Assembly (NCBI GenBank): GCA_965205095.1
Contig: OZ242040.1
Coordinates: 1,607,787 to 1,671,786 of the forward strand
Reading direction: 5' to 3'
Origin: Candidatus Multivorans sp.
GTDB lineage: Bacteria > Acidobacteriota > Thermoanaerobaculia > Multivoradales > Multivoraceae
DNA length: 64,000 bases
In this document: one piece after another, positions 15,467-43,407 of the stretch
Layout: every line of letters begins with the position of its first letter
How positions within the stretch are numbered: the first letter of the stretch is position 1
Made by a program: the position numbers and the translations under genes
The notes under the pieces: model-generated
Told to the model about the DNA's origin: nothing
Seen by the model: the letters and a program-made list of their open reading frames with translations, nothing else
Database searches by the model: none

Positions 15467-15645
15467 GGCGAAGCCGCGAAGTCTCGCTGAAGGCGCTCCA
15501 GTTCGTACTGCAACGATCACCCGTCGACCCTGACCGATTAAGTCCGTGCAGCGCTGGAAGTTCAGTTACACTGGATCCCTCCCCGCCTATTCGACGGGCA
15601 CGGGACACAACCGTACACCTGACCGAGAGCCCACAGAAACACGAT

Positions 15646-16500
15646 ATGACAATCCCTGAACGACAACTTGAACAATGGACCGGCGTCGGCTCTCAAGCCG
15701 GCTCCGCCACTACGTACGCCTCGATCAGAACCGCCCTCGAGGCACACAACTGGCCGTCCGGAATGAACCACTACGTCTATCTGCAAGGTTCCTATCCGAA
15801 CCACACCAACATCCGCGCCGACAGCGATGTCGACGTAGTCGTAGAAAGTTCGAACGTCTTCTATCACAACGTACCGGGGCCAGCCGAGCGCTTACAGTAC
15901 GGCCTGACAAACCCTGGACACTACGGATGGGAAGAGTTCCGCCATGAAGTCCTGCTAGCGTTGCGCAGTTACTATGGTCCTTCCGTCTCAGAAGGAGACA
16001 AGAGCATCAAGGTGCCGAGGTCCGGCAACCGACTGAACGCCGACGTAGTCCCGGCCCTGCTTTACCGCCAGTACCGTCCTCCAGCACATCTCCGCGCTTA
16101 CGCCGAGGGAATGACCTTCTGGACCCGCAAGACCTCCACCCAGATAGTCAACTTCCCCAAGCTCCATAGGAAGAACGGAGAGACGAAGAACAGCCAGTGT
16201 CTCTCCCGCTACAAACGGTCGATTCGCATGTTCAAGAACGCGCGCAACCGCGCGGGAAGCGACTTCCCGTCCTACTTTGTAGAGTGTCTTCTCTACAACG
16301 TGCCCAACCTGTGCTTCGCGGTCAGCCTCGCCGCGACGTACGACCGTGCGCTGAGATACCTCGAGGGCGCGGACCTCCGCTCCTTCGTCTGCCAGAACGA
16401 ACAGCAGAACATGATCGGTGACGCGCCCTGGCAGATCGACTGGCTCACCGCGGAAGAAGTCGTCCGTGACCTACGGCACCTCTGGCGCACATGGAGCTAG
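15646..16500 (+). CDS. cGAS/DncV-like nucleotidyltransferase (CD-NTase / SMODS-type), CBASS cyclase candidate
   Basis: Pol-beta NTase motif GSYPNHTNIRADSDVDVVVE (GS...DxD) and a third acidic residue in RLNADVVPAL (hDhVP-type). Overlaps the patatin gene by 10 nt. Confidence 0.65.
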   Translation: MTIPERQLEQWTGVGSQAGSATTYASIRTALEAHNWPSGMNHYVYLQGSYPNHTNIRADSDVDVVVESSNVFYHNVPGPAERLQYGLTNPGHYGWEEFRHEVLLALRSYYGPSVSEGDKSIKVPRSGNRLNADVVPALLYRQYRPPAHLRAYAEGMTFWTRKTSTQIVNFPKLHRKNGETKNSQCLSRYKRSIRMFKNARNRAGSDFPSYFVECLLYNVPNLCFAVSLAATYDRALRYLEGADLRSFVCQNEQQNMIGDAPWQIDWLTAEEVVRDLRHLWRTWS

Positions 16501-17411
16501 GAAGACCGTACAGAATCCTGTCCCTCGACGGGGGCGGTGCGCTCGGTGTCTTCACACTCGGCGTACTGAGTGAACTAGAGAAGATGATCGGTTCTCCGCT
16601 GTGGAAACGAGTCGATCTCATCTACGGCACAAGCACGGGTTCGATCATCGCTGCTCTACTCGCCCTAGGCCACCCGGTCGACCACGTGTACGAACTCTAC
16701 CTGGAACGTGTTTCGGACATCATGCGCCGCTCTACGTTGTGGACGAGATCGGCTGCTCTTCACAGGCACGCCGAGGACGTATTCGAGAAGAAGAAGGTCG
16801 ACAGCTTCCTTGTAGACGTTGGCATCGTCGCAACGAACTTGGATTCTAAGCGACCCTTGGTGTTCAAGAGCACCGCCGAAGGGGCACATGGCAGGAAGGC
16901 GAGTTTCTGTCCGGGATTTGGCTGCACCATAGCAGACGCCGTGATCGCTTCCAGCGCCGCTTACCCTATGTTCCGGGTCAAGCGGATCTCGACTTCCGTG
17001 CATGGGGAGCTGCGTGCAGCCGATGGCGGATTCGTCGCGAGCAACCCAACCCTTCTTGCGTTGGCGGATGCCCTCGGTCCACGAGAGAAAGCGCGGGGGG
17101 ACCTCGGCGTACTAAGCGTGGGAACAGGCTCGTATCCGCCAAAGCCCTCCGTGTATCGACTCGTGAAGACACTTACAACGTTGATGCAGAGTGGATCCGG
17201 GGCAGTTGATATGCTTCGCAAACTTCTGTTTAGAGACGTGTGGACAGTCAGAGTAAACACAAAGGAGTCGAGCTCCCGTCTCAAGACGAACATGCTGGAG
17301 CACCGGACGCGCGTACTGCGACGCGTCTATCAGAGGGGACAGGATGCGTTCGGAGAGAACGAAGAAGCTCTGGCTGAGCTGTTCGTTGGAACGGAGAGGG
17401 ATGGCCGATGA
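16491..17411 (+). CDS. Patatin-like phospholipase (CapV-like CBASS effector)
   Basis: DGGGALG oxyanion motif, GTSTGS nucleophile and DGG catalytic Asp motifs. Confidence 0.8.
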   Translation: MELGRPYRILSLDGGGALGVFTLGVLSELEKMIGSPLWKRVDLIYGTSTGSIIAALLALGHPVDHVYELYLERVSDIMRRSTLWTRSAALHRHAEDVFEKKKVDSFLVDVGIVATNLDSKRPLVFKSTAEGAHGRKASFCPGFGCTIADAVIASSAAYPMFRVKRISTSVHGELRAADGGFVASNPTLLALADALGPREKARGDLGVLSVGTGSYPPKPSVYRLVKTLTTLMQSGSGAVDMLRKLLFRDVWTVRVNTKESSSRLKTNMLEHRTRVLRRVYQRGQDAFGENEEALAELFVGTERDGR

Positions 17412-17788
17412 CTACTGGCACGGCGGCAGAGAAGCGCGAACTACGGCTAGAGTGGAACAAGCCAGACGGTCGGTGGCACTCGCTGCGCGACGTGAGCCTC
17501 GATGATCCGAGCGTAGGGGATCAGGATGGCGTCTACATCATCTGGCACGGTGGCCGCAATCGAAGAGTCGTCTACGTAGGAAGCGGAAGGATCGCTACTC
17601 GGCTGAGCGCCCATCTCTACGATGGTCGTTTCCTACCGTATGCACACCTCGGCCTAGGGGTGACCTGGGCCGAGGTTCCAATGAAGCACCAGCGAGGCGT
17701 GGAACGCTTCTTGGCCGAAGAGATGGAGCCGGTAGCTGGTGGGCGCTATCCGAATGCCGCGCCGATTGCCGTGAATCTACCTTGGTAG
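17408..17788 (+). CDS. Small GIY-YIG domain protein
   Basis: GVYIIWHGG...VVYVGSG followed by conserved Arg (TRLSAH), Glu (AEEME) and Asn. The start overlaps the patatin stop (ATGA). Confidence 0.55.
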   Translation: MTTGTAAEKRELRLEWNKPDGRWHSLRDVSLDDPSVGDQDGVYIIWHGGRNRRVVYVGSGRIATRLSAHLYDGRFLPYAHLGLGVTWAEVPMKHQRGVERFLAEEMEPVAGGRYPNAAPIAVNLPW

Positions 17789-17792
17789 CAAG

Positions 17793-18185
17793 GTGATGCC
17801 GCAGTTTCGCCGCTCCGAGCCGCCGGACGTCACGCTGCATGAGGTCCAGAACCAGGATCTGGACCTGATCAGGAGCGCTGGCAATAGGGCCACTCAAGGT
17901 GCGTCAGGAGCCTCTGCCACCGCGTCAAGCACGGTCGCCATCCTACTCACGTTGGCGACGTGCGATGTCCCCGTACCATGGCGCACAATTCTCGGAATGA
18001 CGGCGTTCGCTTGTGTCGTCGGCGCCTTTGTCTTTGGGCGCATGTGGTGGCGGGGCCATCGGGAAGGCCAACGCCGCGTCGACACGATCAAGGAACGACC
18101 GATCGCTGAACGGCCCGGCCCGGCGGTCGACGAGAGGCTCGAACGCCTCCTGGAGCAGCTCACGCGGGAGGAGGAAAGTCCATGA
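17793..18185 (+). CDS. Small membrane protein (two predicted transmembrane helices)
   Basis: Hydrophobic stretches VAILLTLATC and AFACVVGAFVFG. Co-directional and tightly spaced. Confidence 0.45.
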   Translation: MMPQFRRSEPPDVTLHEVQNQDLDLIRSAGNRATQGASGASATASSTVAILLTLATCDVPVPWRTILGMTAFACVVGAFVFGRMWWRGHREGQRRVDTIKERPIAERPGPAVDERLERLLEQLTREEESP

Positions 18186-19024
18186 GTCTCCCCGAACCAG
18201 CGCGTATCGACAGTCTGGCACTGCACGAAGGGCGATTCATGGTGTCGGCTGCACTCTCTCACCAAGGCGATCGCTTCAAGATCACCTCCGCTGTCCTGCT
18301 CGCTCCTGACGCTCTGGTCCTGTGCAGCTTTCATCCCGCCAATCCGGAGATACTGATCAAGCTCTTGGATGGGCGGCACATCAATGGGCACTGGTGGGTT
18401 CAGATCGCAAGCGTGTCCCAAGTCGCAGTCGAAATCACCGTGCAAGACGTCGTAACCGGAGAAGCGAACACCTACCGTTCCATCGAGGGTCCGTTTAGTC
18501 CGATCGCCGACTTCACAGCTTTCAAAGACGCGTATCGCTCCTTCACTGACAGCCCCAGCCCTGAGGGCAACGCCGCTGCGCCGAAGCTTGCTGACATATA
18601 TGACTCTTCAATGCCGTCACAGGAGAAACACATGACAGACTCACAACTCGAGCTCAAGAGGCTCCGCCTCTTCCAGACGATTCATGAGTGGGCCTTCAAC
18701 GACCATAGTCGGCCGTCTTCCTATGATCCGCGAATCACGACTCTCGAAGTCCAAGCAAGGCTACTCGGCCTCAGCCCGAGGAACATCCAGATCCTCACCG
18801 AGAGCATCAGCGGTATCCGCGACCTGGCCATTGACTGGTGGAAAACAGGCCAGGAGGAGATTGGCGGCGAGGAGCGGGTCGAGCTCAACAGGAGGATCGA
18901 CGAGGCCCTCACTCCGCTGTATCAGATGCTTCTAGGTGAGCCCCCGAGCGGGCCGCTAGCTCCAACGTGGCCCAGACCTCGAGCAGGAGCCGACCTCCCG
19001 AAGTCAGAGACGCATATTGGCTGA
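18182..19024 (+). CDS. Hypothetical protein with a domain shared with the IS-disrupted gene at 26372-28513
   Basis: LIKLLDGRHINGHWWVQIASVSQVAVEITVQDVVTG resembles LVKVLDGCPINGYRWVFVAPVTDLGLSLRVTGPTG. Confidence 0.5.
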   Translation: MSLPEPARIDSLALHEGRFMVSAALSHQGDRFKITSAVLLAPDALVLCSFHPANPEILIKLLDGRHINGHWWVQIASVSQVAVEITVQDVVTGEANTYRSIEGPFSPIADFTAFKDAYRSFTDSPSPEGNAAAPKLADIYDSSMPSQEKHMTDSQLELKRLRLFQTIHEWAFNDHSRPSSYDPRITTLEVQARLLGLSPRNIQILTESISGIRDLAIDWWKTGQEEIGGEERVELNRRIDEALTPLYQMLLGEPPSGPLAPTWPRPRAGADLPKSETHIG

Positions 19025-19180
19025 GTTGGACTCGCTCGTGCACACCAGACTCTTGACTGATTTGGAGGCTGCACGAAGCGCGCTCCCTCAAGGCGAACGG
19101 AACAACAACCACGACAACGCCAAGAACGTGCTCGGCCTACGCGAGCGAGCCAGTGTACTCAAAGCACAACCGGAGAGAAG

Positions 19181-19444
19181 TTGATCATGTATGGGGAGTC
19201 GATCTACTACTGTGCGCGTTGTGGCGACAGGGCAGAGGTTCAGATCAACCAAGCGACTCGTGAAGGCCATCCCCAAGGACTCGTCAAGTGCCTCAGGCCC
19301 GGTTGCGATGGCGGTACCGAGGACTACGAGATACTTCTTGAACAGTTGGGAAACCCGGGGAGGAATCCTCGTCCGAAGTTCGTTCTTGTCCCCCCTTCGA
19401 AGTCGAAGACGGACTGCGCAGAGCCAAGAACTCGGTGTAGTTGA
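19181..19444 (+). CDS. Small zinc-ribbon protein (CxxC...CxxxC), hypothetical
   Basis: CARCG ... CLRPGCDG. ORF only. Confidence 0.3.
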   Translation: MIMYGESIYYCARCGDRAEVQINQATREGHPQGLVKCLRPGCDGGTEDYEILLEQLGNPGRNPRPKFVLVPPSKSKTDCAEPRTRCS

Positions 19445-19879
19445 GCCGGCAGCTCGTACTGCCCAGAACCGAGGCAGAGGCGCAGCTCGGTCTTGGGGCG
19501 TGGAGGCGTCCCGTGACCGAAGGCCTGCCGGATCATTCAGCCGCCGGCACGGACTTGCGGTCGGCTCCGGCTGTCGCGTCAAGTTCGGCCGACGAGCCTC
19601 GCGTTGGCGCCAGCGCGGCCGACATCTCCATCAGCCGGTCCAGCGTGAAGCGCCCGAGATCGGCATTGCGGACGCGGAAGAAATCCGCCGCAGCGAACCC
19701 GGTGAGACTCGCCGCCTCGTGAGCAGCGAGACGACGGTCGTCCAACACCGCGATGATTCGCGCAGCAAGGACAGCCTTGGCCTGCTTCAGGTCCGCCTAG
19801 GGGTCGCCGAAGTCCCGGAAGACGTTCCCGCTGCCGTGAACGAGTTCGGATTCTCTGTAGGTGACCATCGGCACGGGCA

Positions 19880-20296
19880 TCACGCCGCCGTCAGACGCAC
19901 CCGTTCCCCGTCCAGTTCGAGCGTGGTCTTGGAGTAGGTCAGCTTCTGAACGATCTTGCCGTCCCTGAAGTGCAGAATATCGAGGCCGCGCCTCGCTTCA
20001 TGCTTGTCTCCCTGGCCCTTCTCGAACGAGGGCGAGTCGAGCTGCCAGCGGAAGAGCATCTTCTGCTCGACTTCGTCGATGAAGGTCTCTTCGGTCGTGA
20101 ACTTGAAGTCTCCATGATTGGCGAACCACGGCGCCCATGCCTCACGGAGACTCTCCTTTCCACGGACCGAGCCCCCGTTCCAGTTCTCGAAGTAGATCTC
20201 GTCGTGAAACAGGTCCATCACGCCGTCGAGGTCGTGCTCGTTCCAGGCAGCGCCCCATCTGGCGAACGCGCTGGCCATCTCGTCTCGTGTCAGCAT
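19880..20296 (-). CDS. SnoaL-like / NTF2-fold protein
   Basis: AWNEHDLDGVMDLFHDEIYFENW is a typical SnoaL_2/DUF4440 N-terminus. Confidence 0.65.
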   Translation of the reverse strand: MLTRDEMASAFARWGAAWNEHDLDGVMDLFHDEIYFENWNGGSVRGKESLREAWAPWFANHGDFKFTTEETFIDEVEQKMLFRWQLDSPSFEKGQGDKHEARRGLDILHFRDGKIVQKLTYSKTTLELDGERVRLTAA

Positions 20297-20299
20297 GGT

Positions 20300-20395
20300 C
20301 TTCCTCCTTGGTGACGGCACAGAGAAGCAAGGGCTGCCCAGAAGGGCAGCCCTTGAGCCGACAGCACGCTGCCGGCGGGTATCTGTCGGAGACTA
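20300..20395. repeat. Approximately 95-bp duplicated segment with a hairpin (GGGCTGCCC-AGAA-GGGCAGCCC). The second copy is at 28985-29075.
   Basis: Near-identical strings seen at both places, each at the 5' side of a minus-strand gene. Confidence 0.7.
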
Positions 20396-20438
20396 TACGC
20401 GCAGAGCCCCAAGAGCCCTAGGTACGCCGCGATGGAAG

Positions 20439-20708
20439 TCAGCCTCTAACAAGAACGGGGGCCACCAGGGTGTCTTCTCGAGTTCCGCTCTTCCGCACCA
20501 ATGCTCCGCCCTTGATGCCCTTGGCGTAGACGGCGCGTATGGCCTCGTCGCAGCTTGGGTAGGCACCGATGACCTGCCGACCGCGAATCACCAGGTGCTG
20601 GCCCGGATACCGGCTCCTGAGCTGGTCGAAGTGCTCGTCGTAGTAGTCCCGTTCCTCCTTGAGCACAGTCCTCACGACGTAGTACCCCGTCGCACACTTT
20701 GGCTCCAT
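20439..20708 (-). CDS. Hypothetical small protein
   Basis: ORF with a plausible internal start. Confidence 0.35.
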   Translation of the reverse strand: MEPKCATGYYVVRTVLKEERDYYDEHFDQLRSRYPGQHLVIRGRQVIGAYPSCDEAIRAVYAKGIKGGALVRKSGTREDTLVAPVLVRG

Positions 20709-20889
20709 TGCCAACAGCGGTTGCTCTCGCACCGGATGCTACCAGCGCACTCCGGAGGCCCGGAAGCGGACGGCTACTCGCGCAACCAAGTCCTCCCCGT
20801 TGCGGTGGCGACGCCTCCGCGGTCGGCTGCCGCCGCGTTAGAATCGCCTCCGACGCGAACGGCGGGCCCATGCCCGAAGGAGGGTCACT

Positions 20890-21102
20890 ATGGAGAAGGC
20901 GGCCACGGGCTTGGCCTGGACATTGAAGGTGCAGGTGGAGGCATTCCAGGAAGACGGCGACTGGGTCGCCATCTGCCCGGCCCTGGACGTGGCCAGCCAG
21001 GGTGAAACCAGAGAGCATGCCTTCAAGATGCTCGAAGAAGCCCTGATCGGCTACTTCGAGTGCCTCTCGGAACTCCGTCAGCGGGCTCACATCTCTACAT
21101 GA
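20890..21102 (+). CDS. hicB: HicB-family antitoxin (UPF0150)
   Basis: 70 aa, YWVAICPALDVASQGETREHAFKMLEEALIGYFE. Confidence 0.7.
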   Translation: MEKAATGLAWTLKVQVEAFQEDGDWVAICPALDVASQGETREHAFKMLEEALIGYFECLSELRQRAHIST

Positions 21103-21230
21103 CCCGACCAGGGCTGAGCGGCCTCGTTGTCATCCCCATGCACAGAAGAGACCTGAAGCGGGGAACACTGGCGTCGATTCTCCGGCAGGCCGGACTGAGC
21201 CGCAGCGAGTTCATCGACCTTCTCGGCTAA
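21099..21230 (+). pseudogene. hicA: HicA-like toxin, N-terminally truncated (43 codons)
   Basis: GLVVIPMHRRDLKRGTLASILRQAGL matches the HicA C-terminal half. The start overlaps the hicB stop. No HicA-like N-terminus in any frame upstream. Confidence 0.4.
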
Positions 21231-21285
21231 GGGCGTCACTCGCAACATCCGGGCGATACCCCGGCGGGTTTATCGGCGACGGCGT

Positions 21286-21732
21286 TCAGGTAGCTCGGGT
21301 CGCCGCTCGCAACCTCCGCGTTCCGAACCAGACGCCCACGGCCCCGATCAGCGGGTTGAGCCAGAGGTACCACGCCGGCTGGCGAGCCCCTGCAGTCGCC
21401 TCCATCATCGACACGTCGTCGGGGCGCGGTCCTGCCGCCATCTCCGGCGCGACAAGGGCATTCACCACTCCGAGCACGATCACCAGGCCGATCAGGATCG
21501 TCGCGCCCTTGGCGTCGTGCGCCACCCAGGCACAGACTTGCCCGCCGATGGACGCGCCCACTAGCCCCAGTACCACCTGGACGAGTACCCAGCCGCCGGA
21601 CACCTCCCACGAACCCGGCTCGAAAGCGCGCGAGGGCCCCACCGTCAGCCACAGAAGCGAGAAGAGTGCGAATTGCACGGCGGCCATGGCGACGTAGCCG
21701 ACGATCGCGGCGAGGATGTTCCTGAGCATCAT
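21286..21732 (-). CDS. Integral membrane protein (four predicted transmembrane helices). A paralog lies at 28528-28959.
   Basis: 148 aa, about 90% identical to the ORF at 28528-28959. Confidence 0.6.
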   Translation of the reverse strand: MMLRNILAAIVGYVAMAAVQFALFSLLWLTVGPSRAFEPGSWEVSGGWVLVQVVLGLVGASIGGQVCAWVAHDAKGATILIGLVIVLGVVNALVAPEMAAGPRPDDVSMMEATAGARQPAWYLWLNPLIGAVGVWFGTRRLRAATRAT

Positions 21733-21814
21733 GTTCCTCCGAGCTCATCCAGGATAGCTCGCCTGGTCAGGTCAGCGAATCGATGCGCCGACTACTGGCA
21801 GCCAGGCGACGACG

Positions 21815-22270
21815 CTAGCGAGGGCGAACGAGCGGCCTAGGCTCACAGACGTACCCCAGCCAGAAGAGGCACAGACCGGTCGTGAGAGCCGGTCCACGGA
21901 ACTCTTCCATCCCGATTCGGGGAATGACGAAGGCGATGCCGAGCAGCCCGAGCGCCGCTCCAAGAAACACGAACGAGTACGCCAGCCAGTCCGGCACACG
22001 GTCGAGCCGGTCGAGGAAGGTCCGTGGATGCCCGGAGCCAGAACCAGGAGAGCTCCACGCCGCGACACCAAGACTGCCCAAAGCGAGAGTCAGGAGAGCG
22101 AAGCCCAGAACCAGAGCCGATTGCTCGAGAGCGGGCCGCTCTTTGGGGATCAGAAACGCGCCGACGCCATAGAACGCGTAGAACGTGACGACGCACGAAA
22201 CGACGAACCACCTGAAACGGGGGCTGTGTCCCCGGACCGGCGAAATCTCGGCTTCCTGCGACGCGCTCAT
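21815..22270 (-). CDS. Hypothetical membrane protein
   Basis: Four hydrophobic segments. Confidence 0.45.
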   Translation of the reverse strand: MSASQEAEISPVRGHSPRFRWFVVSCVVTFYAFYGVGAFLIPKERPALEQSALVLGFALLTLALGSLGVAAWSSPGSGSGHPRTFLDRLDRVPDWLAYSFVFLGAALGLLGIAFVIPRIGMEEFRGPALTTGLCLFWLGYVCEPRPLVRPR

Positions 22271-22410
22271 GGAACTCTCGGTCCATTGAGCCTACCGGAC
22301 GGCTCAACAACGTTACTCCCGTCGTCGGGACACGGTCATGCCGCCATCTCCATGCCGCCGGAGCCAGTAGTCTCGCCCATCCGCTTCGGGCGCTCCAGCG
22401 ACAAGACCCC

Positions 22411-23040
22411 ATGACCCTCGACCTCACCTTCGGAGGCCGCCTCCGCATCCCGCTCATCGCGGCGCCGATGTTCCTCGTGTCGTCGCCCGAGATGGCGCTC
22501 GCCGCCTGCTCGCGGGGCGTCATGGGCAGCTTCCCCGCCCACTCCACCCGGACCCGCGCGGTCTTCGCCGGCTCGCTCAGCACCGGCCGCGACATCGTTG
22601 CCGCCCTCGCCATGGGCGCCGACCTCGCCTACATGGGCACCCGCTTCATCCCCGTCCGCGAGTCGCTGGCCAGCGAGGACTACCGCAAGCGCCCTGTTCG
22701 GGGCGACCGCGAAGGACGTCCTCTTCACGACCGCCCTCGACGGGTTCCCGGCCAACTTCCTGGCGCCCAGCATCGAGGACGCCGGCCTGGACCTCGACGA
22801 GGTCAAGGCGACTCCACCTGGGCAGATCGTCGACCCCGGCAAGGCGCGGGGGCGCTACAAGAGGATCTTCTCCGCCGGCCAGGGTGTGGGGATGGTCAAT
22901 GAGGTGAAGCCGACGGCCGAGCTCTGCGATGAGTTGATTGCGCAGTATCGGGAGGCGCAGGTGGCGGTACGGGAGCGGCTCGGTGGCTCGGCGGTGGCGG
23001 GGGCGGCGGCGTGCCGGAGGCGGTTGGAGAGGCGGAGAGG
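22411..23040 (+). pseudogene. Nitronate monooxygenase (NMO / 2-nitropropane dioxygenase) gene remnant with an internal deletion and a frameshift
   Basis: N-terminus RIPLIAAPMFLVSSPEMALAACSRGVMGSFPA is followed directly by C-terminal NMO motifs. The rest of the C-terminal domain sits in another frame (ORF 22598-23044). Confidence 0.6.
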
Positions 23041-23173
23041 CTAGAGAGAGTCACCAAACGGGAGGGAGATTCGAGTGGCCAGGCACCACAAGCTGATCCA
23101 GAGCTACGGGCTGTTCTGGTGAGCTTGCCCCGGTTTCGTGGACACGACATCCTTTGAGTAGGAGGTATCCACG

Positions 23174-23482
23174 ATGCCAAGATCAAGACCCCGGTACCCG
23201 GCAGAGTACCGGCAGCAGATGGTGGATCTGGTCCGGTCCGGGCGCAGCCCGGACCATCTAGCCCGGGAGTTCGAGCCTTCAGCGCAGTCGATCCGCAACT
23301 GGGTGAGGCAGGCAGACCGGGACGAAGGCCGGCGCGTTGACGGCCTGACGACTGCGGAGCGGTCCGAGCTGCGGCGCCTGCGCCGCGAGGTTTGCCGGCT
23401 TCGGGAAGAGCGGGAGATACTGGCAAAAGCAACGGCCTGGTTCGCTCGGGAGACGGGACCGAAGGGGTCTTCCGGTTCATGA
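23174..23482 (+). CDS. IS3-family transposase OrfA (HTH / leucine zipper)
   Basis: 102 aa, typical IS3 OrfA. Confidence 0.85.
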   Translation: MPRSRPRYPAEYRQQMVDLVRSGRSPDHLAREFEPSAQSIRNWVRQADRDEGRRVDGLTTAERSELRRLRREVCRLREEREILAKATAWFARETGPKGSSGS

Positions 23483-29535: not shown

Positions 29536-29561
29536 GAGTCTGTCCAGGGAAGGACTCGTAG

Positions 29562-32359: not shown

Positions 32360-32425
32360 GTCCTTCCTCCGATCGCGTTGGTCTCATCGTCAAGACCAAG
32401 CTACCGGCCAAGGGCCGAGGGTGGA

Positions 32426-34291: not shown

Positions 34292-34855
34292 GTGACCAGA
34301 CGGAAAGGGAGATTCCGAGTGGCCAGACACCACAAGCTGATCCAGAGCTACGGGCTTTTCTGGGACCGGGACAAGGTCGATTGGAGCAAGAACAAGGCGA
34401 GACTGCTCGGCAGGCTCAAGGTCAGGGACAAGGCTGTGGACTTTCGCAACCAGGCGGGCATCTACGCCCTCTACGACCGTGAGTTTCGCCTGCTCTACGT
34501 CGGCCAAGCTGGGAGCAGCAACAGCACGTTGCTGAGCCGTCTCAGGTACCACAACACTCTTCACACTGGAACTCGCGGATTGGCCTCCCGGTGGCAGTAC
34601 TTTTCCTGGTTCGGCCTCCTCCGCGTCCTGAAGGGAAGCCAGAAGCTGGCTGGACCGCCCAAGACTCACCAGACGAAGCGGCCAGAAATCCTCGACGCCC
34701 TAGAAGCTGTCGCTATCGAGATTGCAGATCCCGATCTCAACCGGCAGGGCGGCAGGCTGCGCGCCATTGAGGAGTACCTGCAGTGTGGAGATGACGTCGA
34801 AGAGCAGCGAGCCGAGGACGGTGGCTCTGATGCGGAAGGAAACGGGAACGCATAG
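34292..34855 (+). CDS. Small GIY-YIG domain protein (intact paralog of the IS-disrupted gene)
   Basis: AGIYALYDREFRLLYVGQAG plus downstream conserved Arg/Glu/Asn. Confidence 0.6.
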   Translation: MTRRKGRFRVARHHKLIQSYGLFWDRDKVDWSKNKARLLGRLKVRDKAVDFRNQAGIYALYDREFRLLYVGQAGSSNSTLLSRLRYHNTLHTGTRGLASRWQYFSWFGLLRVLKGSQKLAGPPKTHQTKRPEILDALEAVAIEIADPDLNRQGGRLRAIEEYLQCGDDVEEQRAEDGGSDAEGNGNA

Positions 34856-34867
34856 TCCGCTCGCCTA

Positions 34868-36025
34868 GTGGCGCGCGTGCTCCGGCCCCAGCAGCGGCGG
34901 CGGCCGGCGCCGCCACCGCACGGGTCGTTGCGAGAAGGGACGAGGAGGTCGACGGACGTGGAAGGAATCAAGATCTGGCAGCTCGATGGATCGCGGGCCA
35001 TTCCTCTGGCCTCGGCCAACCGGCTGAAGTCCGAACAGATGCTCGAAGAGGCCCTGGTCGAGAACCCGCACCTGCTGATCGAAGGGTTGACCCTGGTCGG
35101 TCGGCAGACGCCTACAGAGGGCGGGCCGCTTGATCTCCTAGGAGTAGACCAGGACGGCAGGTTGGCAGTCTTCGAACTGAAGCGCGGCACACTGTCACGA
35201 GATGCGGTCGCTCAGGTGATCGACTATGCCTCTCACCTCGACGACATGGATCTCGAAGAGCTCGCCGGTCACATAGGCGCAGCGTCAGGTGCTCACGGCA
35301 TCGACAGAATCGAGAACTTCGAGGATTGGTACGGCCCGCGGTTCGGTGAGCTTGAGTCCCTCAAGCCGTTGCGCCTGTTTCTGGTTGGCCTCGGCGTGGA
35401 CGATAGGACGGAGCGGATGGTGAGGTTCCTCGCCAACAACAGCGCCATGGACATCTCCCTCCTGACCTTCCACGGGTTCGACCAAGGTGGAAAGAGCCTG
35501 CTGGCCAAGCAGGTGGAAGTGGAGCCAACGGACAATGCCCAACGGACAGTACGACGCAGGCGCAGGAGCCGGCAGGAACTCCAGCAGAGGTTCAACGAGA
35601 AGCTCAGTCGATCCGGTGTCCCGGAGTTGTTCCACGAGGTCAAGGGCGTGTTCGAGAAAGACTGGCCGCGAGCCCTGAAGAGGTCGAACTCCTACGGACT
35701 CGCCTTCAAGCTCCAGAGACCGACGCCGTCGGGGCGGTACTCCGTGCAGTACGCGCGGGTCGATCCCAACGAAGACGAAGTAGCCATGGTCTTCTTCCCG
35801 CGCGCCATCCGCCTGTCCAGGGAGGAGTTCAGGCCGCGAGTCGACGAAGTCCCGTACAAGACGTGGCCACCGGGTCGTGAAGCCCTGCCAGCGAACGAGG
35901 ACGAACAGCCGGAGATCCAGTTCCAACTGACGCCGGAAGCCTGGAACGACCACAAGGCGAGCCTGGCCGAACTTGCCCAAGCCGTCTACGAGGCTTGGGA
36001 GGAAGAGCGTGCTAGTGAGCCGTAG
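34868..36025 (+). CDS. PD-(D/E)xK nuclease-fold protein, paralog 2
   Basis: 385 aa, about 90% identical to 24916-26022. Confidence 0.6.
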   Translation: MARVLRPQQRRRPAPPPHGSLREGTRRSTDVEGIKIWQLDGSRAIPLASANRLKSEQMLEEALVENPHLLIEGLTLVGRQTPTEGGPLDLLGVDQDGRLAVFELKRGTLSRDAVAQVIDYASHLDDMDLEELAGHIGAASGAHGIDRIENFEDWYGPRFGELESLKPLRLFLVGLGVDDRTERMVRFLANNSAMDISLLTFHGFDQGGKSLLAKQVEVEPTDNAQRTVRRRRRSRQELQQRFNEKLSRSGVPELFHEVKGVFEKDWPRALKRSNSYGLAFKLQRPTPSGRYSVQYARVDPNEDEVAMVFFPRAIRLSREEFRPRVDEVPYKTWPPGREALPANEDEQPEIQFQLTPEAWNDHKASLAELAQAVYEAWEEERASEP

Positions 36026-36130
36026 GCGACGCCCCTACGCTCCGCGGCGACACGGGCAACACCGGGGACGATTCCAGCAGACCCGCAGCTACGACCCGCC
36101 AGACCCGACTAGCGCAGAGGGGAGCCGAGA

Positions 36131-37129
36131 ATGGTGAAGCTGGCCGCATGGACGATCGAGGAACAGCCCGAGAAGAAAGGCCCGCAGAAATGGGAGCCAC
36201 GGAGAATCGAGCCCTCCCAGATCGACCTGGAGAAACACCTCGAGGACTGGATCGTCAAGGATGCATCCCTCATCGGGCAAGGGCTGACACTGGTCGGCCG
36301 CCAAGTGACGATCGACGACGGTCGTCTCGATCTGCTGGCCATCGACTCGCACGACCGGTGGGTGGTGATCGAGGTCAAGCCCGGAGTTCTCCACTCCGGC
36401 GCACTGAACCAGGCGCTCTACTACGCCTCGTCACTCGCCCTTCTCGACACGGATGACGTCAGCAGGCTCCTGAAAGACGGACTTCGCCAGCTTGGGGACG
36501 AGGAGGCACTTTCAGCGAGAGTCAAGCAGCTTCTGGACGAGGAAGAGGAGCGAGAGATCGCCCTGTTGCTCGTCGGTGCCGGCGTCCACCCGGGCTTGGA
36601 GCGAATGAACGGCTTCCTCGGGCGCTTCGGTATTCCGGTCAGCGTTGTCAGCTTCGAGGTGTTCGAGTTGGATGAGGGCCCGAAGCTCCTGGTCCGCGAG
36701 GTGATCGACGAAGCCGTCGCGGTGCCGCGTCCGAAACGCCGCTACACCGTTGGGGCTATCCGGAACCTGGCCGTCAAGGCGGGCGTTGGAGAGCAGTTCG
36801 ATCGCTTCGTCCGCATCTCGGAAGAGGCCGGTCTGCCGGTGCAGGCGCAACAGGCATCTGTGAGAATCGCTCCGCCGGCAGACAAGAGGCGTTTTCTGAT
36901 GTACGCGACGCCGCGACCCGACCCGAACGGCGGAGCACTGGGTATCTGGGTGGGTCCCGAGAACTTCGCCGACTGGTTTCCTCCCATATGCGCCGAAGCG
37001 GCCACGGACGCGCTCGGCACCTACGACGACGGCGACTTCCTGGCCGGTGAGGAGCTCGCCAACCGGCTCGACGAGATAGAGAGCTTCCTGACGACGTACT
37101 TTCCGGAGCCAACTGCGGACAGCGACTAA
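36131..37129 (+). CDS. PD-(D/E)xK nuclease-fold protein, paralog 3 (divergent)
   Basis: GRLDLLAIDSHDRWVVIEVKPG ... ALNQALYYASSL. Confidence 0.55.
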   Translation: MVKLAAWTIEEQPEKKGPQKWEPRRIEPSQIDLEKHLEDWIVKDASLIGQGLTLVGRQVTIDDGRLDLLAIDSHDRWVVIEVKPGVLHSGALNQALYYASSLALLDTDDVSRLLKDGLRQLGDEEALSARVKQLLDEEEEREIALLLVGAGVHPGLERMNGFLGRFGIPVSVVSFEVFELDEGPKLLVREVIDEAVAVPRPKRRYTVGAIRNLAVKAGVGEQFDRFVRISEEAGLPVQAQQASVRIAPPADKRRFLMYATPRPDPNGGALGIWVGPENFADWFPPICAEAATDALGTYDDGDFLAGEELANRLDEIESFLTTYFPEPTADSD

Positions 37130-37424
37130 CCCCTCGGGGGGTGGAAGCAACCCGTCGACTCCAGTCGCAACGCTTGCTCCGCGGAGGTTTAGCTGGCCGC
37201 CGCGCGCGTTCGGCATCGAAGAGCACCTGTTCTTGGAGGCCTGCGGTCAGCCGGCCGGAACGATCTTAAGAGGCAGTTACAGCACGGCTGACAACTGCTT
37301 TCGTCTCGACCGCGACCATCTCGAGAGCCTCATCTCGCTCATTGTCGACCGACCAACGTCCGGAGGCAGCCTTCCGGAGGACTGAGCATCCGCTACGGCA
37401 CTGGGGCCGGTAGCAACGGCGGGC

Positions 37425-37500
37425 AGTTGTGGATGCGGCAACGTTGCAGATCTGTCAGCCGGTGTCGGATCGGACTAGGGCCACTGGGAGGTCGTAGGCG
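37425..37500 (+). other. Fragment homologous to the last roughly 75 bp of the CitE-like lyase gene (15395-15475), in a 500-bp non-coding stretch
   Basis: GGCGGGCAGTTGTGGATGCGGCAACGTTGCAGATCTGTCAGCCGGTGTCGGA... compared with GGCGGGCAGTTGGTGGATGCGGCTACGTTGCGGATCTATGAGCCGGTGTTGGA. Confidence 0.65.
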
Positions 37501-37633
37501 TGGCCCGTCCGACCCGTCGCCAGAACATCAGCGAGTCCTTGATACTCTCCACCTGGCCGCAGTCAGGCCCGGCTGGCTTCTTGACGGCTCAAGCAGCAAG
37601 ATCTGAGTGCCATGAACGGCCTAGTCGTCCGCG

Positions 37634-38188
37634 GTGCTCTCGGCTTGGTTCAGTAGCTCTTCACTCCAAAGCCCAATGTCCTCTGCATCTGACCTCAGAG
37701 CTCGCGTCGGCTACTTGCTGGCTGGCGGTCTAGTGTTCCTCGCTATTGAGCACATTCTAGTGGACGCCACTGTCAGCTTCATCAAGGGCACGACAGCTTC
37801 GATCATCGAGTATGTTCCTGAAATAATGCCGTCTACAGTCGTCCAACGAGAACGACGAGAGCGCATAAGGGAACTGAGAGAAGAATCTCAGCACGAGCTA
37901 TGGCTGTCGAGAAACTTGACGTTCGAGGGAGACTTCTCCGACTCGCTCAGGGAGGTGTTTCGTCGCCACCATAGGGAACAGGCCGTGCTCCTGGACCTGC
38001 AAGCGCGACGGTTGGAAGAGGGCCGGCTCGTCAGAAAGTACCCACCCGCGAAGTGGTATGACAACGTCTTCGTCTACCCTATGGACTTGAACCCTAGCGA
38101 TCTTCCCGGTCTCTCCGTCAGAGATGCCAACCGGAAGCCGATAATCCTGCGCAACAGAGTCACAGTTAGGCTAGATGGGTCGAGCTAG
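37634..38188 (+). CDS. Hypothetical protein
   Basis: ORF, lower-GC codon usage. Confidence 0.35.
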   Translation: MLSAWFSSSSLQSPMSSASDLRARVGYLLAGGLVFLAIEHILVDATVSFIKGTTASIIEYVPEIMPSTVVQRERRERIRELREESQHELWLSRNLTFEGDFSDSLREVFRRHHREQAVLLDLQARRLEEGRLVRKYPPAKWYDNVFVYPMDLNPSDLPGLSVRDANRKPIILRNRVTVRLDGSS

Positions 38189-38279
38189 CGTGGCGCGGGC
38201 CAGGCGCATGCCGTGAACTCCTTGGGCCAGTGGCTCTTCCCTTCAGGGGACTATGTCGAGTAGTGCCTACGCCAAAGGG

Positions 38280-39113
38280 CTACACGGCATCGCCGATCTG
38301 GGACGCCAACTCGCCTTCGTAGACGTACACGGCGCCCAGCATCAAGTACTTCGTCCACAGCCGCCAGACCGCTTGCCATCTCGAACTCTTCGGATCAGCC
38401 TGTTCCACGGGGAGTCCGTAGCTCCTTGCATCCGTCGCCGACACGATCGCGCCGTGGTTCTTGGATTCGCCGATCAGATGCTGGTGCAGGGCTTTGGCGA
38501 GCGCCTCCACATCCTGGGGCTTGCGTGACGAAACGCTCGCCAGAGCCTCCCGAGTCAGGTCTGCGATTCGGTCCATCGCGTCGCGGCTCTGCTGGACCAT
38601 GAGCGCTGTGATGTCGGTCAAGAGCGATGCGTGAAGTGGATAGGTCGTGGGGTTCTCTTGAATCCTGCGCTCGGCCTCTTCCACCGCGGCGATGATGGCG
38701 CGTGCGGGGGCCAGGGAGCCGTCCGGAAGCTGGAACTGTGGGTCGACAGGGCCGAGGTCACTCGTCGGCCCCATGTAGATGCTGTCCGCCCCCAAGACCA
38801 GGAGCGTTCCGGCGCTCTTGGCCTGGTCCGGCACGATCACGGTCAGCTCCCGGCACCGCGACTGGGCTTGGCGAATCATCCGCAACGCGGTTTCGCCATC
38901 CCCTCCCAAGGTCCCGAGCATGAGGTGAAGATCCTGCTCCGGGTCCGCATTGAACAGTGTCTCCTCAAGAAGCGGGACGCTGCGAAGCGGGAAGATCACA
39001 TCCCGCACGACCACGAGACGGCAGTCGTGAGCTTCCTGGTAGCTCCGGATGATCTGCTGGCGTTCGTACCGCCCAGCGTTGGCGGCTTCGTAGAGAGGAC
39101 TGCGGTTCGTCAC
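38280..39113 (-). CDS. ClpP/S49-fold serine peptidase (SDH family)
   Basis: GGDGETALRMI...AKSAGTLLVLGADSIYMGPTSDLGPVDPQ. Confidence 0.55.
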   Translation of the reverse strand: MTNRSPLYEAANAGRYERQQIIRSYQEAHDCRLVVVRDVIFPLRSVPLLEETLFNADPEQDLHLMLGTLGGDGETALRMIRQAQSRCRELTVIVPDQAKSAGTLLVLGADSIYMGPTSDLGPVDPQFQLPDGSLAPARAIIAAVEEAERRIQENPTTYPLHASLLTDITALMVQQSRDAMDRIADLTREALASVSSRKPQDVEALAKALHQHLIGESKNHGAIVSATDARSYGLPVEQADPKSSRWQAVWRLWTKYLMLGAVYVYEGELASQIGDAV

Positions 39114-39451
39114 TGGCGGATGCGGATCGGTAGCCCCTGCAGATCGAACGTGGACGGCTTGTCACCCCGAGCCTTCCGCGTCTCCTCCCGTACCCGCTTG
39201 GCGAACTCGATCCGTTCCCGCCAATCGGGATCGATGCTCGTCGGGGGGTGCCCAAGCGCGGGTGACTGTCCGGCGACATCCCGGCTGCGATCCGACGGTG
39301 TGGCTTTAGGCTCGGTCACGACTGGTCCCTGCTGTTCCGTATGGGGCGTTCCGAGTACACGCTCGCCCTCTCGGCCGAAGTGTACGAGGTGGATTCTAGC
39401 GGAGACCCACCCTGGCGGCTCGATTCGCCCGAAGCCCGAGACCTGATTCAA
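39110..39451 (-). CDS. Hypothetical protein upstream of, and coupled to, the peptidase gene
   Basis: ORF with a 4-bp overlap. Confidence 0.35.
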   Translation of the reverse strand: MNQVSGFGRIEPPGWVSARIHLVHFGREGERVLGTPHTEQQGPVVTEPKATPSDRSRDVAGQSPALGHPPTSIDPDWRERIEFAKRVREETRKARGDKPSTFDLQGLPIRIRQ

Positions 39452-39495
39452 CTCTCGGGTTGAATGACAGCCCAGATCCCGCTACCCTCAACCAC

Positions 39496-39855
39496 ATGGT
39501 TGAACAAGACCTGAACCACATCTTCCACGCCCTCTCCAACCCCACCCGCCGCGCCATCCTCGCTCGCCTCGCCTCAGGCGAAACAACCGTCGGCGACCTC
39601 TCCAAGCCCCTCCCCCTCTCCTTCGCCGGCGTGTCGAAACACCTCGGCGTACTCGAACGCGCCGGCCTCGTGACACGCGAAGCGCGGGGCCGAGAACGAG
39701 TGTGCCGGCTCAACCCGGCCGCGCTCCGGGACGCCCAGGAGTGGCTCAAGTTCCACACCCGCTTCTGGACCGAGCGCTTGGACGCGCTCGGCGCACTGGT
39801 CGAGACCGGCGCCGGCGCCGACGACGCGGACGAGGACGAGGGCGAAAAGCAATGA
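39496..39855 (+). CDS. ArsR family transcriptional regulator
   Basis: FHALSNPTRRAILARL...VSKHLGVLERAGLV. Confidence 0.8.
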   Translation: MVEQDLNHIFHALSNPTRRAILARLASGETTVGDLSKPLPLSFAGVSKHLGVLERAGLVTREARGRERVCRLNPAALRDAQEWLKFHTRFWTERLDALGALVETGAGADDADEDEGEKQ

Positions 39856-40358
39856 CGAGCCCCACCCAGCCGACACCAGCCACCCGCACGAACAGCCCGG
39901 AGGACCCCGTCATGGCGGACCACCAGAACGAACCGAACATCCACCTGACGCTCGAACGCGTGATCGACGCGCCGGTCCAGCGGGTCTACGCGGCATGGAC
40001 CGACCCGGAGTTGCTGAAGCAGTGGCTGGCGCCGGGGGATGCCGTCGCCTCGCGCGCGGTCGCCGACACAGTGGTCGGCGGGACGTTCCTCATCGAGATG
40101 CGCGGGACCGACGGGCAGCGCTGGCTCGCCCGCGGCGTGTACCGGGAAGTCGCGCCGCTACGCCGCCTGGTGCACACCTGGCGCTGGGAAGGCAGCGACA
40201 TCGAGACACTGGTCACCGCCGAGTTCGAACCTGAATCGGCCGATACGACGCGCCTCACGGTCACTCATGCCCGATTCGCCCAGGACGAGGCCCGCGACCA
40301 GCACGGGAGTAGCTGGGCGTCCTGTCTCGAGAAGCTCGGGGAGCTGTGCGCCGCATGA
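39852..40358 (+). CDS. SRPBCC / AHSA1-family protein
   Basis: Starts by ATGA overlap with arsR. Typical ArsR-AHSA1 pair. Confidence 0.7.
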   Translation: MTSPTQPTPATRTNSPEDPVMADHQNEPNIHLTLERVIDAPVQRVYAAWTDPELLKQWLAPGDAVASRAVADTVVGGTFLIEMRGTDGQRWLARGVYREVAPLRRLVHTWRWEGSDIETLVTAEFEPESADTTRLTVTHARFAQDEARDQHGSSWASCLEKLGELCAA

Positions 40359-41248
40359 ACAGGGTCGCGTCGACCGCCCGTCCCGATTGGGTTTCCGACG
40401 ACCTGTTCCCGTTCGAGAGCCGGTTTCTCGACCTCCCGCCCGATCACCGGATGCACTACATCGACGAAGGCGAGGGCGAACCGATCGTGTTCGTCCACGG
40501 CAACCCCGCATGGTCGTTCGAGTTCCGGCATCCGGTCCGGGAACTGCGGTCGGAGTTCCGCTGCGTCGCGCTCGACCACATCGGCTTCGGCCTCTCGTCA
40601 CGGAGCGCACGGCGCGAGGACCATCGTCCCCGGAGTCACGCGCAGCGCCTGGCCGCTCTGCTCGACCATCTCGACCTTCGCGACATCACCCTGTTCATGA
40701 ACGACTGGGGCGGGCCGATCGGCCTCGACTTCGCACGCAGGCACCCGGAGCGCGTCAAGCGTCTCGTCATCGCGAACACCTGGTGCTGGCCGGTCGGCGA
40801 CGACTTCCACTTCAGGTCGTTCAGCTTCCTGATGTCGAGCTGGATCGGCCAGTACCTGCTGCGGCACCACAACCTCTTCGTGAACGGAGTGATGCCGAGA
40901 GCGGTCGGCGACCGGAGCGTCCTGACGCCGGAGATCATGGCTCACTACCGCAGCGCACAGCCGTCGCCCGCGGCACGGGCCGCGAGCGCCGCGCTGCCGG
41001 GCTACATCGTGGGCGCGAGCGACTGGCTGCGCTCGATCTGGGAGGACCGCGCCGCCTTCGCGGACAAGCCGGCGCTTGTTCTCTGGGGGCTGAAGGACAT
41101 TGCGTTCCGGAGGAAGGAACTGGAGCGGTGGAAGTCGGCGCTTCGGGATGTCGAGGTTCGCGAGTTTGAGGATTGCGGGCACTTTGTGGCGGAGGAGGCG
41201 CCGGGGAGGGTGGTGGAGGGCCTTCGGAGGTTCATGAGGCGCTCGTAG
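40355..41248 (+). CDS. Alpha/beta hydrolase (haloalkane dehalogenase-like)
   Basis: HGNPAWSFEF, nucleophile DWGG, C-terminal CGHF. Confidence 0.75.
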   Translation: MNRVASTARPDWVSDDLFPFESRFLDLPPDHRMHYIDEGEGEPIVFVHGNPAWSFEFRHPVRELRSEFRCVALDHIGFGLSSRSARREDHRPRSHAQRLAALLDHLDLRDITLFMNDWGGPIGLDFARRHPERVKRLVIANTWCWPVGDDFHFRSFSFLMSSWIGQYLLRHHNLFVNGVMPRAVGDRSVLTPEIMAHYRSAQPSPAARAASAALPGYIVGASDWLRSIWEDRAAFADKPALVLWGLKDIAFRRKELERWKSALRDVEVREFEDCGHFVAEEAPGRVVEGLRRFMRRS

Positions 41249-41264
41249 CGGCCTGCCCGCATGA

Positions 41265-41580
41265 TCGCTGCCCGCTGCGGGGCCAGCATCGACGCCATCG
41301 ATCGCCCCTTCGACGACTTCAGGAACGACAAGGCTTACCTCAAGGCAGGCCACTTGCGCCGCCAGCCTCGGCGCCGTCGGCAAGTGGCTCATCCATCCCA
41401 ACCAGATTCCGATGGCCAACGACGGCCTCGCGCCGTCGCCCAGGGACGTCGAATAGGCGCAGAAGATGGTCGATCTCCACAACGAGTCCGTTGCGAAGGG
41501 GACTGGGGCGGGCGCGAAGGGGGACAGTTGGTGGGCGCGACGACGTTGCGGGTCATGAGCCAGTGTGAGGAGGGCGCGGG
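41265..41580 (+). pseudogene. Degenerate copy of the 3' third of the CitE-like lyase gene (matches 15125-15466) with frame-disrupting changes and an in-frame TAG
   Basis: Aligned DNA: RMIAA...AIDGPFGDFRNDKAYLK ... QKMVDL(Y/H)NESVAKG ... up to the stop. Confidence 0.8.
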
Positions 41581-43384: not shown

Positions 43385-43407
43385 CTACGCAGTCTGAGAG
43401 AGTTCAG

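Follow-up and report, generated by a model that had tools for sequence, protein, structure and literature searches.

The 64,000-nucleotide stretch of contig OZ242040.1 from Candidatus Multivorans sp. analysed here, in the following called the window, carries a variable region framed by two convergent genes, an acyl-CoA lyase gene on the left and the gene of a secreted beta-helix-repeat protein on the right. Its bounds are 15468-56047 if the tails of both flanking genes are counted, tails being co-oriented, 5'-truncated copies of the 3' ends of these two genes that lie inside the region and divide it into segments with different cargo, much of it related to anti-phage defence. As discussed below, the region might have grown by repeated displacement of the flanking gene ends. 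For comparison we used loci from related genomes (L-numbers), which cover a flank of 10 kb per relative (20-kb loci). The anchor genes, tails and segments are the following:

12220-12714, plus strand: MaoC-type (mesaconyl/itaconyl-CoA) hydratase (Pfam, NCBIfam)
12745-14559, plus strand: family III CoA-transferase (Pfam, NCBIfam)
14564-15466, plus strand: HpcH/CitE-family acyl-CoA lyase, intact, 300 amino acids (aa), left anchor gene (Pfam HpcH_HpaI, 8.8e-37)
15468-15509, minus strand: remnant of a UPF0175 gene, 42 bp of its 3' end (alignment with L010/L011)
15510-29141: segment A, between the lyase and tail 1
29142-29222, plus strand: lyase tail 1 (tblastn match to aa 138-164; blastn core 29170-29212)
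29206-37402: segment B, between tail 1 and tail 2
37403-37498, plus strand: lyase tail 2, matching lyase 15371-15467
37499-41256: segment C, between tail 2 and tail 3
41257-41598, plus strand: lyase tail 3, matching lyase 15124-15467
41599-47438: segment D, from tail 3 to right-gene tail c
47439-47649, minus strand: right-gene tail c, 212 bp, 73% identical to 56047-56255, ending at the TAG stop (self-blast)
47650-53638: segment E, from right-gene tail c to tail b
53639-54376, minus strand: right-gene tail b ("R"), 738 bp, 95% identical to 56048-56785 (self-blast)
54379-55135, minus strand: TonB_C-domain gene between tails a and b (Pfam, tblastn)
55137-55203, minus strand: right-gene tail a, 68 bp, 91% identical, stop codon removed by a 1-nt insertion (self-blast)
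56048-~58560, minus strand: right anchor gene, intact, secreted beta-helix-repeat protein with a C-terminal HpaI-aldolase-like domain (frame-specific GC3)

The lyase is the last gene of a hydratase/CoA-transferase/lyase operon, and the arrangement with the hydratase and the CoA-transferase upstream is kept in relatives. Its matches to the NCBIfam families CitE and RipC/Ccl stay under the curated cut-offs. The GC content drops from 0.69 at 14-15 kb to 0.59-0.62 at 15-20 kb and reaches 0.68 again at 54 kb, and the GC content of third codon positions (GC3) is 0.90 in the lyase and 0.65-0.75 in the five genes that follow. An initial annotation, made from the sequence alone, had placed an abrupt change of GC content and codon usage about 30 bp behind the lyase stop, and this was confirmed as GC and GC3 fall there and the homology with relatives breaks at 15509/15510. 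The 42 bp in front of this break belong to a UPF0175 gene that is complete and directly 3' of the lyase in L010 and L011, whose blastn match reaches window position 15511, and they represent the right-hand part of the left copy of a repeat flanking segment A. In L010 the two convergent genes overlap, the UPF0175 orthologue having its end within the final 17 nt of the intact lyase. A mosaic 3' end in the window's own lyase was rejected, as its ~2% differences from the closest relatives are evenly spread; patchy differences were found only in L005 (15181-15376) and in the last codons of L001.

The extent of the right anchor gene was set by a frame-specific GC3 of 0.93-0.98 from 56048 to ~58528, its start being approximate, and the open reading frame (ORF) of 1626 aa given by the ORF finder is real only to ~58.5 kb. 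The NCBIfam HpaI match to this gene is weak, and four diverged ~84-nt repeats at 57641-57992 encode its parallel beta-helix turns. In L051 and L012 the same gene forms the right border of the island. Its three tails inside the region had been missed by the initial annotation; they end at the position of the TAG stop and are followed by unrelated sequence, and tail c together with lyase tail 3 brackets segment D. Tail b reads as a 243-aa ORF without the first part of the aldolase-like domain. We also considered it (as R, 53639-54370) as a CitE paralogue from which the lyase fragments might have been derived, which was rejected since it shows no similarity to the lyase and repeats the C-terminal domain of the right gene in 5'-truncated form. 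The lyase and this C-terminal domain (56051-56779; R) do both belong to the HpcH/HpaI aldolase-lyase superfamily, with no detectable pairwise similarity, which is probably a coincidence. The TonB_C gene is found directly upstream of the operon and on the same strand in L017 and L029; the homologue in the window is placed between two right-gene tails and on the opposite strand.

A blastn search with the lyase region against the window gave three plus-strand matches that stand out, all others having E values of 0.005 or higher. The core of tail 1 (29170-29212) is 95.3% identical to lyase 15003-15045 over 43 bp (E 7e-14), tail 2 shows 83.5% identity over 97 bp (E 4e-23) and tail 3 85.5% over 345 bp (E 2.5e-108). 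The three fragments had already been noticed (at 29150-29225, 37425-37500 and 41265-41580) and turned out to be somewhat longer. All of them are oriented as the intact lyase. As the tblastn alignments contain frameshifts and one in-frame stop, they are pseudogene debris, and tail 3, in which 17 codons differ synonymously and 24 non-synonymously and which has indels and a stop codon, is decayed. A role of such tails as functional C-terminal fragment proteins was rejected, because an open frame is kept in only three of about ten long tails. Derivation from a different CitE paralogue, which had been raised as an objection, did not hold; an origin from orthologues of this lyase is supported. Tails 2 and 3 terminate at the lyase stop +1 to +2 and have only this right end in common, their left ends lying at 15371 and 15124 without a shared 5' core, and the precise alignment that had been suggested in order to define a common core attachment (att) site thus yielded nothing except the right end at the stop codon.

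The sequence to the left of a tail, its arm, turned out to be informative when compared with relatives. In L051 and L002 the arm of tail 1 (28986-29169) is followed by longer tails, of 464 bp and 370 bp respectively, and the 43-bp piece, which had been taken for an internal fragment of the lyase, is thus a 3' tail with its middle deleted. The arm of tail 2 (37198-37394) is the end of a PDC-S11-like gene that in L029 is joined at lyase 15013 to a tail of ~500 bp, tail 2 being ~350 bp shorter than this type. The stop of an alpha/beta hydrolase gene is joined to a lyase tail in the window and in L009, L021, L023, L026 and L052, with junctions at lyase ~15086, 15098, 15100, 15124 and 15291. One arm joined at differing points of the lyase represents a deletion series anchored on a functional gene and indicates erosion by deletion. 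The flanks of segment A are a duplicated chromosome stretch that runs from lyase 15003 or further upstream to the stop and includes the 42 bp of the UPF0175 gene: a complete UPF0175 module follows tail 1, and the intact lyase retains 42 bp of the same gene. Since this repeat contains the end of a neighbouring gene, which is not expected of a dedicated attP, it looks like chromosomal DNA of a relative. The complete UPF0175 ORF (29206-29535, minus strand) terminates at a TGA within the 43-bp lyase fragment (the two share 29206-29212), where a T-to-A change compared to the lyase made the stop.

The lyase places the window in the lineage of Candidatus Multivorans / Thermoanaerobaculia (Acidobacteriota), and all matches are metagenome-assembled genomes, of which several appear sponge-derived according to their isolate names. 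The best relative is ~95% identical to the window at the nucleotide level and none is identical; look-ups of the window's lyase and CBASS cyclase as exact proteins likewise gave no match in the collection used. What lies 3' of the lyase is different in each genome, and this also holds for five with ~98% identity in the operon region; in several genomes right-gene sequence is found 1.6 to >10 kb after the lyase. The two-gene frame is conserved among relatives, its content is not. The initial annotation had suggested to compare relatives in order to see whether the lyase is directly followed by the genes from 53.6 kb onward; these genes are not yet the conserved flank. Relatives share a pool of small modules, with SnoaL in 20 loci, a 148-aa ORF in 26, HigBA-type pairs and an ArsR-hydrolase pair that recurs in nine related loci. 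Their lineage-specific defence genes include ThsA, AbiEii, a reverse transcriptase, PDC-S45 and PDC-S66; in L044 a reverse-transcriptase gene (RVT_1, 11004-12554), which may belong to a defence system or to a group II intron, directly follows the lyase stop.

Lyase tails are carried by about 12 related genomes, with a maximum of five in OZ253534.1 (loci L031/L052), where they lie together with two CoA-transferase fragments within ~19 kb, and the first unit of this array, which the intact lyase and a 395-bp tail enclose, consists of one 464-aa gene of unknown function. The duplicated length ranges from 38 bp to the whole operon (>3 kb) across relatives and includes CoA-transferase fragments, and OZ251997.1 (L015, L017) carries two complete hydratase/CoA-transferase/lyase operons 24 kb apart. 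In young tails the synonymous to non-synonymous differences from the resident intact lyase are 9:2 (L029), 10:4 (L052) and 16-20:5-9 (L051). As these differences are mostly synonymous, young tails come from functional alleles that had already diverged. Old tails, including the window's own, are decayed and their synonymous signal is erased.

In order to find a recombinase, every called ORF of the window and 112 six-frame ORFs from the gaps were searched with Pfam, and no tyrosine or serine recombinase, intact or as remnant, was found, in agreement with the initial statement that no integrase is left in the window. The proposed search for recombinase pseudogenes likewise gave none in the window or in related loci. 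The six-frame translations of the window and of 75 loci were also searched with a tyrosine-recombinase hidden Markov model (HMM) built from four sequences and with single probes including the gamma-delta resolvase; these gave nothing in the Multivorans clade (~40 related 20-kb loci) and the HMM matched only L061, an unrelated Competibacteraceae contig that served as positive control. This search was added as the Pfam scan of 119 ORFs from the relatives' islands, read from the best 25 of 98 families, cannot alone exclude an integrase. Pfam and PADLOC analysis of the genes beside lyase ends and tails in relatives revealed only defence candidates and transposases.

Several other classes of elements were tried and rejected. 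A tRNA or non-coding RNA att site was dismissed as neither tRNA genes nor Rfam RNA families are present in the window, and a phage or satellite origin as no viral contig with a relative of the lyase was found. For an integron or an attC array without integrase (CALIN) no IntI was detected in the window or in the relatives' loci, nor did a repeat search, which used no dedicated attC model, reveal a recurrent palindrome at the module borders, the sole hairpin repeat being the one at 20331-20356 and 29003-29030. A Tn7-like or Mu-like element was suggested by a protein with rve and Mu-transposase C-terminal domains, which is the IS21 transposase; no TnsA/B/C or TniQ was found, the only rve-domain proteins being the IS3 and IS21 transposases, and we know of no gene-tail duplication caused by Tn7-type insertion. 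The NucS_C-like proteins were considered as recombinases, and as they match the candidate defence family PDC-S11 they are most simply cargo. Specific targeting of TAG was also discarded, since TAG is a common stop in the clade (256 of 746 called genes) and its excess at module ends was noticed post hoc.

The best reading of these data, to which we give about an even chance, is a homology-anchored sequential displacement by incoming alleles of related strains followed by erosion through deletions, and as part of this explanation the interval from the lyase to the right gene would be a recombination hotspot grown by repeated displacement. DNA of a related strain would arrive with an intact copy of one flanking gene and its own downstream cargo and would pair by homology in or upstream of this gene, while its far end would be joined non-homologously within the resident gene. 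The incoming copy would then become the working gene, and the resident 3' tail with the old cargo would be shifted inward. At least three such rounds from each side would result in an onion-like structure with the youngest segments next to the intact genes and the oldest (41.6-47.4 kb) in the center, segment D thus probably being the oldest core. Later deletions, bounded on each side by functional neighbouring genes, would have shortened tails and spacers, and the insertions of IS3 and IS21 may have added further disruption. The molecular route could be homology-facilitated illegitimate recombination of linear DNA, and it could equally be the RecA-dependent Campbell-type integration of a circle with a lyase-tail homology arm, which would give the same product.

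What speaks for this displacement is that behind an intact gene there are co-oriented 3' remnants, truncated at the 5' side, with their former neighbours, and three such tails are seen for the lyase and three for the right gene; tail 1 with UPF0175 matches the order of lyase and UPF0175 in L010/L011. Tails of both convergent genes inside the region in native orientation, the lack of detected recombinases and fixed arms with variable tail starts also fit. Diverged functional alleles are seen in the relatives' young tails and in modules duplicated within the window, which are 91-93% identical and thereby near the between-species divergence of core genes (88-91% identity). The excess of synonymous differences implies that the copies diverged as functional genes before they stood side by side, which argues for horizontal input.

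Other observations weigh against the displacement reading. Six unrelated arms join the lyase within 14975-15035, a spread of ~60 bp, three short-read metagenome contigs break at lyase 15014-15048, and at the right gene the junctions of two different arms fall on the identical nucleotide, 56785. A preferred break zone counts against plain illegitimate recombination, because the latter predicts none. The break zone of the lyase sits in a locally variable patch just upstream of the gene's most conserved block, and tail starts elsewhere are also numerous across relatives. Divergence starts 1-3 nt from the lyase TAG in >20 genomes and tails, and the same is seen at the right gene; deletion down to functional limits could explain such sharp edges. 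Where organisms have been tested for it, homology-facilitated illegitimate recombination is reportedly rare (PMC5361080). With relatives covered over 10 kb of flank each, a recombinase might also act from elsewhere in the genome. The clustered starts together with the sharp stop-codon edges leave room for a targeted enzyme encoded elsewhere in the genome or for nuclease-triggered homing.

The initial annotation had explained the lyase fragments by site-specific integrative elements that bring replacement 3' ends of the lyase, are stacked in tandem at an attB within this gene and later lost their integrases, a variant being that the recombinase is encoded elsewhere. The fragments do mark boundaries of successive acquisitions, and the target gene is reconstituted with displaced tails downstream of an intact lyase, yet decayed integrase elements at one attB found no support, as there is neither a recombinase nor a shared core and the tail starts (15003, 15371 and 15124) do not point to one fixed crossover. 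Tails that stop exactly at the stop codon do resemble att identity blocks at gene ends, the clustered starts at 14975-15035 beside six unrelated arms could be a common crossover zone used by different elements, the order of a 97-bp and then a 345-bp tail suits two successive integrations, and the synonymous divergence of young tails would suit copies once selected as a working gene end. On the other hand, neither the window nor ~40 related 20-kb loci contain an integrase or its remnant despite the rapid turnover among ~98% identical genomes, the junctions are spread over ~60 bp instead of one nucleotide, and between 38 bp and the whole operon were duplicated. Furthermore, the repeat of segment A passes the stop codon into a neighbouring gene, a second system would have to be assumed for the same scars at the unrelated gene on the opposite side, several segments consist of a lone defence gene without mobility functions, and the "accessory" region holds genes common to 20-26 related loci (SnoaL, 148-aa ORF). 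We therefore regard integrative elements as unlikely, though still worth considering. The tails might also be working parts of a recombinase-free cassette system, with lyase tails of ~465 bp and right-gene tails of ~740 bp as portable homology arms, where small defence cassettes would loop out and re-insert by homologous recombination of the host in any member of the clade, new ones being captured preferentially at break zones (lyase 14975-15035 and right gene 56785) that are possibly cut by nucleases of the island; this appears rather improbable to us, and if true it would be a homing-like, integrase-free way to build defence islands.

Without any horizontal input, tandem duplication in place by unequal sister-chromosome exchange from the lyase to the right gene, followed by divergence, decay and deletion, would account for the tandem order of lyase and right-gene tails, the two complete operons of OZ251997.1 and the modules duplicated within the window. 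It is hardly compatible with the mostly synonymous differences of young tails, which point to divergence under selection before juxtaposition, nor with the cargo between the tails, which is unrelated instead of being copies of each other, and copy 1 of the 148-aa ORF in the window is closer to the L003 copy (94.5%) than to copy 2 in the window (93%), so we consider this origin to be quite improbable. A small chance is left to a homing driven by a nuclease of the island or the host that cuts the lyase near 15000 and the right gene near 56785, after which the upstream end would copy a cargo-bearing allele and the other end be re-joined by end joining, so that a tail with an arbitrary arm would start at the cut. 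Tail starts that are concentrated in a hot zone beside unrelated arms and scatter by a few tens of bp, as from nibbled ends, would agree with this, and circumstantially also the PD-(D/E)XK (PDC-S11) nuclease genes, which in the window and in L005, L008, L028 and L029 adjoin the lyase stop or the start of a tail. Against it stand that PDC-S11 is a candidate defence family present in a minority of loci only, that no cleavage site was identified and that many tails start elsewhere.

Known systems share parts of this architecture. The elements e14 and phage 21 at icd of E. coli supply a new 3' end to the target gene and leave the original 3' end as a fragment at their far side. As in the window, the target gene stays intact and the homology block stops at the gene end, but the icd elements encode an integrase and use one defined crossover, whereas the search for an integrase was negative here, anything between 38 bp and >3 kb is duplicated and one repeat extends past the stop. 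The islands and tycheposons of Prochlorococcus, which contain partial tRNA genes and tyrosine recombinases, are similar as hypervariable islands in which tandem insertions, decayed in part, are marked by recurring 3' fragments of the target gene; they differ in the tRNA target and the recombinases, the window having no tRNA or recombinase. In the core defence hotspots of Pseudomonas aeruginosa and the integration hotspots of E. coli a fixed conserved gene pair frames variable defence systems, and here as well a conserved pair surrounds CBASS (cyclic-oligonucleotide-based anti-phage signalling system), Avs, restriction-type enzymes and candidate single-gene systems. To our knowledge, nested scars of both flanking genes are not a described feature of defence hotspots flanked by core genes.

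The logic of displacement itself has been proposed by Kirchberger et al. for type VI secretion (T6SS) effector-immunity arrays in Vibrio cholerae (PMC5361080), and the displacement of Rhs C-termini is cited therein as an earlier hypothesis of this kind (Jackson et al. 2009). Like the region described here, T6SS/Rhs arrays start with an intact gene, behind which co-oriented 3' remnants with a truncated 5' side lie next to their former partners, and lack an integrase, and homology-facilitated illegitimate recombination was proposed for them, followed by spread between strains through ordinary homologous recombination. In contrast, the genes in question here provide housekeeping-type gene ends whose tails are homologous to the current end instead of being alternative toxin tips, the cargo is anti-phage defence instead of immunity genes, and both sides of one interval are affected. 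Circular intermediates mediated by direct repeats can move chromosomal genes, one example described being cfr(C) in Campylobacter (PMC10770853). Lyase tails could serve as such repeats for loop-out and re-integration by homology in another cell, a possible route only.

The proposed displacement-type array would consist of housekeeping gene ends and build a defence island from both sides. The usual explanation for defence islands is that mobile elements with an integrase land at hotspots. At this locus ~40 genomes of an uncultured, largely sponge-associated acidobacterial lineage exhibit a rapid turnover of defence cargo with no integrase found, and if the displacement reading is true, a mechanism so far discussed for toxin-immunity arrays would apply also to how anti-phage defence islands are assembled. 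The scars of the flanking genes might then be read as a relative timeline with the oldest part in the middle and the youngest at the edges, and behind the clustered break zones there could be a targeted nuclease or else a recombinase that has gone unrecognised.

The cargo of the five segments, whose labels in the initial annotation were broadly right according to Pfam, PADLOC and NCBIfam, is listed below:

15646-16500, segment A: CBASS cyclase (PADLOC 1.8e-87)
16491-17411: CBASS patatin effector (PADLOC 1.2e-97)
19880-20320, minus strand: SnoaL
21286-21732, minus strand: 148-aa ORF
~22371-23044: nitronate-monooxygenase-like gene fragment
23120-24379 and 26669-27928: two copies of insertion sequence IS3 (Pfam, self-blast)
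24455-26022: PDC-S11 nuclease module (PADLOC)
28528-29040, minus strand: 170-aa paralogue
from 28986: hairpin-bearing arm of tail 1
29206-29535, minus strand, segment B: UPF0175 gene, complete
29562-29855: ORF
29920-32474: insertion sequence IS21 with 61-bp inverted repeats (NCBIfam)
34292-36025: second PDC-S11 module, 91% identical to 24380-26022
36131-37129: PDC-S11 paralogue
37092-37385: remnant of a further PDC-S11 paralogue
38280-39113, minus strand, segment C: SDH-type protease (Pfam)
39460-39855: ArsR (Pfam)
40346-41248: alpha/beta hydrolase (Pfam)
42042-42983, segment D: radical-SAM protein, viperin-like (Pfam)
42980-43384: DUF6375 (Pfam)
43408-47433: Avs2-type NACHT protein (NCBIfam Avs2 4.6e-73, PADLOC)
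within segment E: 298-aa ORF
49020-50456, minus strand: GmrSD-HNH (Pfam)
50511-53180, minus strand: fused N6-methyltransferase/restriction-type protein (Pfam)

Unrelated anti-phage systems, namely CBASS, three PDC-S11 genes, Avs2, GmrSD-HNH, the N6-methyltransferase fusion and the viperin-like radical-SAM protein, are thus clustered between conserved genes with a content that varies among relatives, as in defence islands and hotspots. The CBASS is Type I-like, and three small ORFs follow up to 19024; segment A also contains toxin-antitoxin remnants of HicA and of HigA type, and over the whole window such remnants comprise HicA, HTH_37 and UPF0175. Three NucS_C-like (PD-(D/E)XK) nucleases of the window match PDC-S11, a candidate defence family of PADLOC. 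Segment C has further ORFs of 184, 113 and 92 aa, and a sharp module border at 32466 in segment B is the end of IS21. The two copies of IS3 were considered as a composite transposon or as the cause of an inversion, which was rejected since a separate 3-bp target duplication, TGG and GAG, accompanies each of them, indicating independent insertions.

In L025 a full-length copy (338 aa) of the nitronate-monooxygenase-like gene comes immediately after a lyase operon that is the second one there and is deleted in part, and behind this copy homologues of the window genes 5714-6907 and 2964-4322 are located. The hairpin AAGGGCTGCCC-AGAA-GGGCAGCCCTT with a perfect 11-bp stem occurs twice, at 20331-20356 upstream of SnoaL and at 29003-29030 in the arm by tail 1; its surroundings (80 bp) are 96% identical between both copies and the modules next to it appear in permuted order. 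GC-rich palindromic units resembling repetitive extragenic palindromic (REP) sequences, for instance GGTGCGCCGGCG...CCGCCGGC and GCGGACCAGAAGGTCCGC, often form pairs in inverted orientation and are confined to the high-GC flanks and never occur in 15.5-56 kb:

1048-1131, 2657-2955, 8403-8492, 10149-10757, 11842-12103 and 12734-12812: REP-like units of the left flank
58601-58773, 60529-60577, 61496-61682 and 63649-63806: REP-like units of the right flank

Also in the right flank, ~15 tandem copies of the 12-nt unit GGTGGAGGCGTT are found at 60301-60480 inside the 971-aa Laminin_G_3 gene (58807-61722, minus strand), and this array looks like a repetitive low-complexity linker.

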